From the NCBI RefSeq assembly GCF_000027125.1, contig NC_017626.1: a DNA stretch of 64,000 bases; one strand, 5' to 3'. The notes under the pieces are model-generated. The model was not told the origin of the DNA, made no database searches, and worked only from the letters and a program-made list of their open reading frames with translations. The translations under genes were made by a program, and so were the position numbers. Numbering within the stretch: position 1 is the first letter of the stretch; every line of letters starts with the position of its first letter. This document shows positions 51,952 through 52,254 of this stretch, one piece after another. This DNA is from Escherichia coli 042 (GTDB lineage Bacteria; Pseudomonadota; Gammaproteobacteria; Enterobacterales; Enterobacteriaceae).

Positions 51952-52038
51952 TGGTACCCGGAGCGGGACTTGAACCCGCACAGCGCGAACGCCGAGGGAT
52001 TTTAAATCCCTTGTGTCTACCGATTCCACCATCCGGGC
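51952..52038 (-). tRNA. leuZ: tRNA-Leu (anticodon UAA)
   Basis: 87-nt type II tRNA; the minus strand reads GCCCGGATGGTGGAATCGGTAGACACAAGGGATTTAAAATCCC...GGGTACCA with encoded CCA. Confidence 0.95.
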
Positions 52039-52050
52039 TCGGGAAGAAAG

Positions 52051-52124
52051 TGGAGGCGCGTTCCGGAGTCGAACCGGACTAGACGGATTTGCAATCCGCT
52101 ACATAACCGCTTTGTTAACGCGCC
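52051..52124 (-). tRNA. cysT: tRNA-Cys (anticodon GCA)
   Basis: 74 nt; the minus strand reads GGCGCGTTAACAAAGCGGTTATGTAGCGGATTGCAAATCCGTCTAGTCCGGTTCGACTCCGGAACGCGCCTCCA. Confidence 0.95.
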
Positions 52125-52178
52125 AAATTCTTCAGGCCTTTCAGCCAGACATCCGCTTGACGCCGATGTCTTTTAAAC

Positions 52179-52254
52179 TGGAGCGGGAAACGAGACTCGA
52201 ACTCGCGACCCCGACCTTGGCAAGGTCGTGCTCTACCAACTGAGCTATTCCCGC
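52179..52254 (-). tRNA. glyW: tRNA-Gly (anticodon GCC)
   Basis: 76 nt; the minus strand reads GCGGGAATAGCTCAGTTGGTAGAGCACGACCTTGCCAAGGTCGGGGTCGCGAGTTCGAGTCTCGTTTCCCGCTCCA. Confidence 0.95.

Follow-up and report, generated by a model that had tools for sequence, protein, structure and literature searches.

In Escherichia coli, the tRNA genes glyW, cysT, and leuZ are described as being made as one polycistronic precursor, the initial processing of which depends on RNase E (PMC3082872). The K-12 annotation of this interval reads yecA, the ncRNA 3′ETS-leuZ (b4759), leuZ, cysT, glyW, pgsA, and uvrC, so it includes, besides the tRNAs, the 3′ external transcribed spacer that trails leuZ. This spacer is described as a sponge for the small RNAs RyhB and RybB (Lalaouna et al. 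2015, cited through PMC6191717 and PMC5222698). RNase E excises the trailer, with a 5′ end that in Salmonella maps 15 nt downstream of mature leuZ; the trailer pairs with RyhB, and its raised levels drive RyhB decay (PMC5222698, PMC6191717). PMC6191717 also describes an Hfq-dependent titration of both RyhB and RybB in vivo by 3′ETS-leuZ. Finally, mobile DNA is found in the same place, and the "IE at leuZ" of STEC O145:H28 sits at the chromosomal integration site that we discuss here (PMC7067040).

We have analyzed this locus in a 64,000-nt stretch of the E. coli 042 chromosome (NC_017626.1), which we refer to as the window, and to which all coordinates refer. The region is an ordinary E. coli stable-RNA operon, glyW-cysT-leuZ, already known; the locus, the 3′ETS-leuZ sponge, and the leuZ attachment site have all been described before. 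We are almost certain of the account that joins them: a tRNA operon with its 3′ETS sponge, an empty attachment site (attB), and an open reading frame that runs antisense by chance. What may be left to add is the behavior of a 12-nt motif in the trailer copies that mobile elements carry.

The tRNA genes and the identity of the locus

A reading of this DNA made from the sequence only had proposed three minus-strand tRNA genes of 87, 74, and 76 nt, with encoded CCA ends, lying between yecA and pgsA, and had named ARAGORN as a way to check them. Run over the whole 64 kb window, ARAGORN calls three tRNA genes and no more, at exactly the positions proposed, and Rfam agrees: the RF00005 model, with a gathering score of 29, is matched full-length by all three (Table 1). 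The leuZ tRNA has a long variable arm, and its anticodon loop occupies 52000-52006. The CCA ends can be read directly in the sequence, as "tgg" on the plus strand at 51952-54, 52051-53, and 52179-81; an encoded 3′ CCA is typical of E. coli tRNA genes. Pfam domains and RefSeq annotation both bear out the two flanking genes.

Table 1. Features of the glyW-cysT-leuZ locus and its flanks, ordered by position in the window.
Feature	Position	Strand	Details
yecA (flank, outside the operon)	51091-51756	-	221 aa; Pfam UPF0149 (2.2e-36) and SEC-C; RefSeq
Unoccupied attB	51875-52007	.	leuZ from anticodon loop to 3′ end, whole 3′ETS, and terminator
3′ETS-leuZ (3′ external transcribed spacer)	51885-51951	-	67/67 identical to K-12 ncRNA b4759
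Intrinsic terminator of the operon	51885-51909	-	hairpin 51888-51909, then U-run
sRNA-pairing core AAGCAGUGUCGU	51910-51921	-	within 3′ETS-leuZ
leuZ, tRNA-Leu(UAA)	51952-52038	-	87 nt; ARAGORN; Rfam RF00005 57.7 bits; K-12 b1909
Spurious ORF	52013-52243	+	76 aa, GTG start; antisense to leuZ, cysT, spacer, and glyW
cysT-leuZ spacer	52039-52050	-	12 nt
cysT, tRNA-Cys(GCA)	52051-52124	-	74 nt; ARAGORN; Rfam RF00005 54.0 bits; K-12 b1910
glyW-cysT internal transcribed spacer	52125-52178	-	54 nt; two hairpins
glyW, tRNA-Gly(GCC)	52179-52254	-	76 nt; ARAGORN; Rfam RF00005 69.1 bits; K-12 b1911
Predicted 5′ leader	52255-52321	-	between predicted start and glyW
Predicted sigma-70 promoter	52328-52355	-	-35 TTGACT 52355-52350, 16-nt spacer, -10 TAGAAT 52333-52328
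pgsA (flank, upstream of the operon promoter)	52406-52954	-	182 aa; Pfam CDP-OH_P_transf (6.3e-39); RefSeq

Thousands of E. coli genomes share this arrangement of genes. A megablast search with 51700-52500 finds a match in 5,425 of 5,426 complete E. coli genomes, many of them at 100% identity, and the RefSeq genomes that are 100% identical are annotated as pgsA / tRNA-Gly / tRNA-Cys / tRNA-Leu / yecA. Along its full length, the window is collinear with positions 1,938,217-2,003,697 of K-12 MG1655, at an identity of about 97.5-98%. Closer to the operon, over 51600-52500, identity rises to 99.3%, with six differences (51608, 51676, 51803, 51813, 51840, and 52394) and zero mismatches across 51841-52393. 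Because all the differences fall outside that interval, the operon does not differ from that of K-12 in its promoter region, leader, three tRNA genes, two spacers, trailer, or terminator.

Other parts of the window also depart from K-12. The IS1H that lies upstream of flhDC in K-12 is absent (39419-39426), as is a 133-bp segment of the cmoB-torZ intergenic region (16204-16206), and in the yecV/yecT region about 770 bp of K-12 are replaced by about 40 bp (23455-23493). In fliC (62515-63418), the central part has no K-12 match and the flank has 92% identity, indicating what would be a different H antigen from that of K-12.

The order of the tRNA genes upstream of leuZ takes two forms. Gly-Cys-Leu occurs in 28 loci, and all 24 of those that we checked by title or sequence context are Enterobacterales. 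Cys-Gly-Leu occurs in 34 loci; among the titled loci of the scan, most are Vibrionaceae.

The transcription unit

A consensus scan of 51600-52600 returns a single promoter-like site, on the minus strand upstream of glyW, with 10 of 12 consensus matches. After its -10 box comes GCAACGC (52327-52321), a GC-rich discriminator, and an A-rich stretch (52356-52378) precedes the -35 box. An A-rich upstream stretch and a GC-rich discriminator give a stable-RNA promoter its usual look. Transcription is predicted to start near 52320, and RNase P is predicted to remove the 5′ leader at the glyW 5′ end. The predicted leader is unusually structured, with two hairpins (-17.3 kcal/mol, z = -3.7).

At the other end, the trailer directly 3′ of leuZ finishes in an intrinsic terminator, a hairpin followed by a U-run. 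The stem has 9 bp, AAACCACC(U)/GGUGGUUU, capped by a UUCG loop, the hairpin reading AAACCACCU-UCG-GGUGGUUU; it is seen in the centroid structure and in an RNA.fold prediction. In relatives the stem stays constant while the loop changes (UUCG, GAAA, UACG, UCCG). A consensus terminator scan of 51600-52600 returned nothing; the rule requires 5 T after the stem, and an extension of the stem by A-U pairs uses up part of the T-run, which is why the hairpin was missed.

Promoter and terminator are consistent with one transcription unit. The minus strand would probably be transcribed from the predicted sigma-70 promoter to the terminator, for which a structure is shown, giving a polycistronic precursor that, going by the literature, RNase E would cut in the spacers and that RNase P and exonucleases would trim. 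The expected products are tRNA-Gly(GCC), tRNA-Cys(GCA), and tRNA-Leu(UAA), each with a genomically encoded CCA.

The glyW-cysT spacer is also well folded (MFE -19.6 kcal/mol, z = -3.8). In 24 Enterobacterales spacers its first hairpin (..CATCGGC-loop-GCGGRTG..) recurs, with compensatory pairs at 4 of 8 positions; the papers searched gave us no account of it.

The trailer as an sRNA sponge

The core AAGCAGUGUCGU of the trailer (Table 1) is what would make it a sponge. In duplex predictions using the K-12 sRNA sequences, the core is complementary to CACGACAUUGCU of RyhB, with one G-U pair, and none of 500 shuffles reaches the energy of that duplex. The first 8 nt of the core also match the 5′ seed of RybB, whose 5′ end is GCCACUGCUU. 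In this case the duplex energy is equalled by 15% of shuffles, that is, it is indistinguishable from them, and support for the RybB pairing thus comes from the 8-nt seed match and from published work. Once released, 3′ETS-leuZ would pair through its core with RyhB and RybB and act as a sponge, an activity that we take from the published work.

The 3′ETS has no Rfam match of its own. Two families, STnc130 (26 bits) and sroD (20 bits), do come up over the terminator and the 3′ETS; both fall below their gathering scores, 55 and 50, and we discard them as chance matches to a terminator-like sequence. The sequence-only reading, sound in the claims that it did make, overlooked this known RNA altogether, together with the concrete role of leuZ as an attB.

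An empty attachment site at leuZ

That tRNA clusters are common integration sites was noted in the sequence-only reading as a generality, and for leuZ it holds quite literally. The 801-bp query (51700-52500) is found in one piece in 3,781 of 5,426 genomes; the remaining 1,645, about 30% of the total, have it broken at window positions 51875-51886.

Lysogens have the block of DNA concerned twice, as attL and attR, and phages carry it in their attP, as seen by local BLAST, by alignment, and in the annotated attP of mEp390. Aligned in tRNA sense, element and host share identity from the 5′ edge of the leuZ anticodon loop (52006/52007) through the tRNA 3′ end, CCA, the entire 3′ETS, and the terminator. 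Local BLAST of two occupied genomes shows that the yecA-side junction keeps window 51600-52006/52007, and that the leuZ-side copy begins at 51883 for a P2-like prophage or at 51875 for an island. The replacement block is then 124-133 bp long, trailer RNA and terminator included. The crossover is likely to take place in the anticodon loop. The arrangement is the classical one, in which an element supplies a replacement for the 3′ part of its target tRNA.

In the window itself, the same reading had seen neither integrase nor direct repeat, and had suggested a search for duplicated tRNA 3′ ends. We searched the whole 64 kb, and neither the 3′ end of any of the three tRNA genes nor the trailer occurs a second time; apart from the genes themselves, the best matches are 10-12 nt long, with chance E-values. 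Compared with K-12, nothing is inserted near the locus, and the collinearity leaves no room for an integrase. Lacking both an integrase and a repeated tRNA end, the window has the site unoccupied. The DNA from 52007 to 51883 or 51875 serves as chromosomal attB for several families of tyrosine-integrase elements.

Elements found at leuZ in other genomes and phages

We inspected five occupied genomes, and they show three kinds of elements, all between yecA and leuZ. One is a P2-like prophage of about 37 kb in UTAK-4, with a second example, seen at the leuZ end only, in DETEC-S565. Another is a defence island of about 35 kb in E. coli isolate 2015-01-2097, the integrase of which also adjoins leuZ in Z1323CEC0001. 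The third is a siphovirus/lambdoid-type prophage in Ec55, in which xis-int abuts leuZ. The three integrase types have at most 27% mutual identity; all belong to Pfam Phage_integrase, and their N-terminal domains differ. The P2-like integrase of UTAK-4 matches the structure of the HP1 integrase (PDB 1AIH, E = 4.6e-75).

Among the 5,426 E. coli genomes, DNA of the P2-like integrase is present in 525-599 and that of the island integrase in 357-442, the two types together accounting for 882 genomes at a query coverage of at least 80% and for up to 1,041 with any match. The DNA of the mEp390 integrase has no megablast match in these genomes, and the E. coli lambdoid class at leuZ uses a relative that is 64% identical to it.

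The 2015-01-2097 island is dense in defence cargo. Alongside a type I R-M system (R, M, S) and Hhe (DUF4011), it encodes a pair of DUF262 proteins, a cold-shock-domain protein, a second SEC-C protein of the "YecA family," a DNA polymerase, and a pair of tyrosine integrases. In the UTAK-4 lysogen, an orphan host fragment made of the leuZ 3′ 55 nt, the whole 3′ETS, and the terminator is found some 106 nt downstream of int, in the same orientation, and could act as 3′ UTR and terminator of int. In the IMG/VR contig UViG_3300042922_000477, there are one full leuZ and two partial copies of leuZ plus trailer within 11 kb (48, 3559, 11131). The trailers differ slightly and the 12-mer is the same, which indicates what would be tandem elements stacked at one attB. 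Two further records, 520873 and vB_EcoM-720R5, were considered as attP carriers and rejected: both include host yecA, which makes them prophage excerpts showing attL and not packaged genomes.

An invariant 12-mer in host and element trailers

How similar are the trailers that the elements carry to that of the host? A scan of IMG/VR, for which we used a 25-mer covering the anticodon and variable arm of leuZ, gave 123 matches and 68 unique variants of the type "tRNA 3′ half plus trailer." Those with a trailer starting in (T)TGGG, 55 of the 68, form an E. coli-like family, and in all 55 the 12-mer AAGCAGTGTCGT is kept. Around it the variants are far from constant. About 10 nt after CCA are hypervariable, and the terminator loop is again UUCG, GAAA, UACG, or UCCG on a constant stem. 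The phage copies also have a compensatory change in the T-stem, C-G to U-A, as expected if phage copies join a working tRNA. Seven verified or paired comparisons of element and host show 0 of 12 differences inside the 12-mer and 4-13 outside, and beyond the core, element copies have diverged from host copies by as much as about 20%. All these 12-mer comparisons use copies that are phylogenetically non-independent.

As a host baseline, taking one genome per species, AAGCAGTGTCGT is found in about 12 genera of Enterobacteriaceae. Pectobacterium has the variant GTGCAATGTCGT, an even better complement of RyhB than the E. coli core. In Pectobacterium zantedeschiae, where the trailer is otherwise unrelated to that of E. 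coli, GTGCAATGTCGT is a perfect 10-nt complement of the RyhB core. The leuZ trailers of Dickeya and Edwardsiella have no such motif, and in the Vibrionaceae loci inspected, leuZ is followed by other tRNA genes or by unrelated sequence in place of the trailer.

Weighing the alternatives

The open reading frame and the empty site each have a competing explanation, and we consider both to be extremely improbable. For the frame, which the sequence-only reading had dismissed, the competing claim is that it is a genuine small-protein gene antisense to the tRNAs. It does have 76 uninterrupted codons and a GTG start, and comparable frames over leuZ fragments have been deposited as "hypothetical protein" (ON470604 861-1001, Fostie 3059-3202). 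Against this, no Pfam family matches it, neither K-12 nor the identical PGAP-annotated RefSeq genomes listed have an annotated CDS at this place, the consensus scan of 51600-52600 has no promoter-like site on the plus strand, and as for conservation, every base is accounted for by the three tRNA genes and the structured spacer. Being antisense to all three tRNAs, with neither Pfam match nor RefSeq annotation, the frame is spurious, an open frame that arose by chance opposite the tRNAs. For the site, the claim would be that the locus is the scar of an integrated element, with degraded attL and attR. Such a past is conceivable at a hotspot that is split in 1,645 of 5,426 complete genomes, more so given that departing elements carry or restore near-identical sequence, and that a precise excision would be traceless. 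Against it, across the 64 kb there is no duplicated leuZ fragment or 3′ETS. The flank past the terminator (GTGCCTGCAACTTGTCG...) is host yecA-side sequence as in K-12, unlike the element-side sequences of lysogens (GTATTTG..., GTGCATGCAATTC..., GTATCTTC...), and the collinearity with K-12 also counts against a remnant. We keep to an attB that is empty.

As to the invariance of the 12-mer, the simplest reading is that a function of the trailer at the RNA level would constrain host and element copies alike. The stronger claim, that elements are selected to carry and preserve the host sRNA-sponge function in their attP, we put forward tentatively, as something that may well turn out otherwise. 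Somewhat less probable still, in our judgment, is that selection for the sponge has nothing to do with it, and that AAGCAGTGTCGT is kept because recombination requires it at the DNA level (as an arm site for integrase or as an IHF site), by recency, or by gene conversion. The arms of attP do hold protein-binding sites; but the same 12-mer is invariant in three integrase lineages with no more than 27% amino-acid identity, and host loci without an insertion have it unchanged as well, across about 12 genera. Homologous exchange between direct repeats of 124-133 bp could homogenise the copies; yet the sequence diverges on both sides of the 12-mer in the seven pairs, which speaks against blanket gene conversion. 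The swapping of terminator tetraloops on a stem that is kept is an RNA-level pattern. In favor of this rival, the copies are also not phylogenetically independent. We found no paper, in the literature searched, that links leuZ or RyhB to prophage attachment sites, and such an absence is no proof of novelty. The invariance of the 12-mer in element copies is a modest point, possibly an unreported one.

Implications

For the window itself little is at stake, as it holds a textbook tRNA operon. Its annotation should nevertheless be adjusted. The regulatory RNA 3′ETS-leuZ should be added, the antisense open reading frame should leave any gene track, and the attB should be flagged as empty, which helps in comparing strains and in hunting for prophage and defence-island cargo. 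The two "hypothetical protein" CDSs in phage records, ON470604 861-1001 (+) and Fostie 3059-3202 (-), span a leuZ fragment plus the 3′ETS and are probably the same sort of spurious call.

If elements are indeed selected to preserve the sponge, then the selection acting on integrating elements would reach past the restoration of a tRNA to the buffering of sRNAs. Integration would swap the sponge allele of the cell for that of the element, and would leave behind an orphan host copy of the sponge. In P2-like lysogens, that orphan copy, about 106 nt downstream of int, could be expressed as the int 3′ UTR.

Comparison with known systems

The attachment sites of several phages can be set next to that of the window. 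In Haemophilus phage HP1, which attaches within a tRNA-Leu gene, the annotated attP resembles the 3′ half of leuZ, the equivalent of window 51951-52010, at 80% identity. That match covers the tRNA part only, whereas the E. coli elements add the 3′ETS and the terminator. In two free phages, the lambdoid mEp390, with an annotated attP, and Fostie, the attP, adjoining xis-int, aligns to window 51886-52008 at 87-89% identity, and the integrase next to leuZ in Ec55 is 64% identical to that of mEp390. None of HP1, mEp390/Fostie, or the O145:H28 element has a counterpart integrated in this window.

With respect to the sponge of Lalaouna et al. (2015), the window has the same 67-nt sequence, the same RyhB/RybB core, and the same terminator. 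Another close system is the K-12 operon, glyW-cysT-leuZ (b1911-b1910-b1909) with b4759. The genes, their order and strand, the spacers, the trailer, and the yecA and pgsA flanks are alike, and the window deviates from it only by strain-level SNPs in the flanks.
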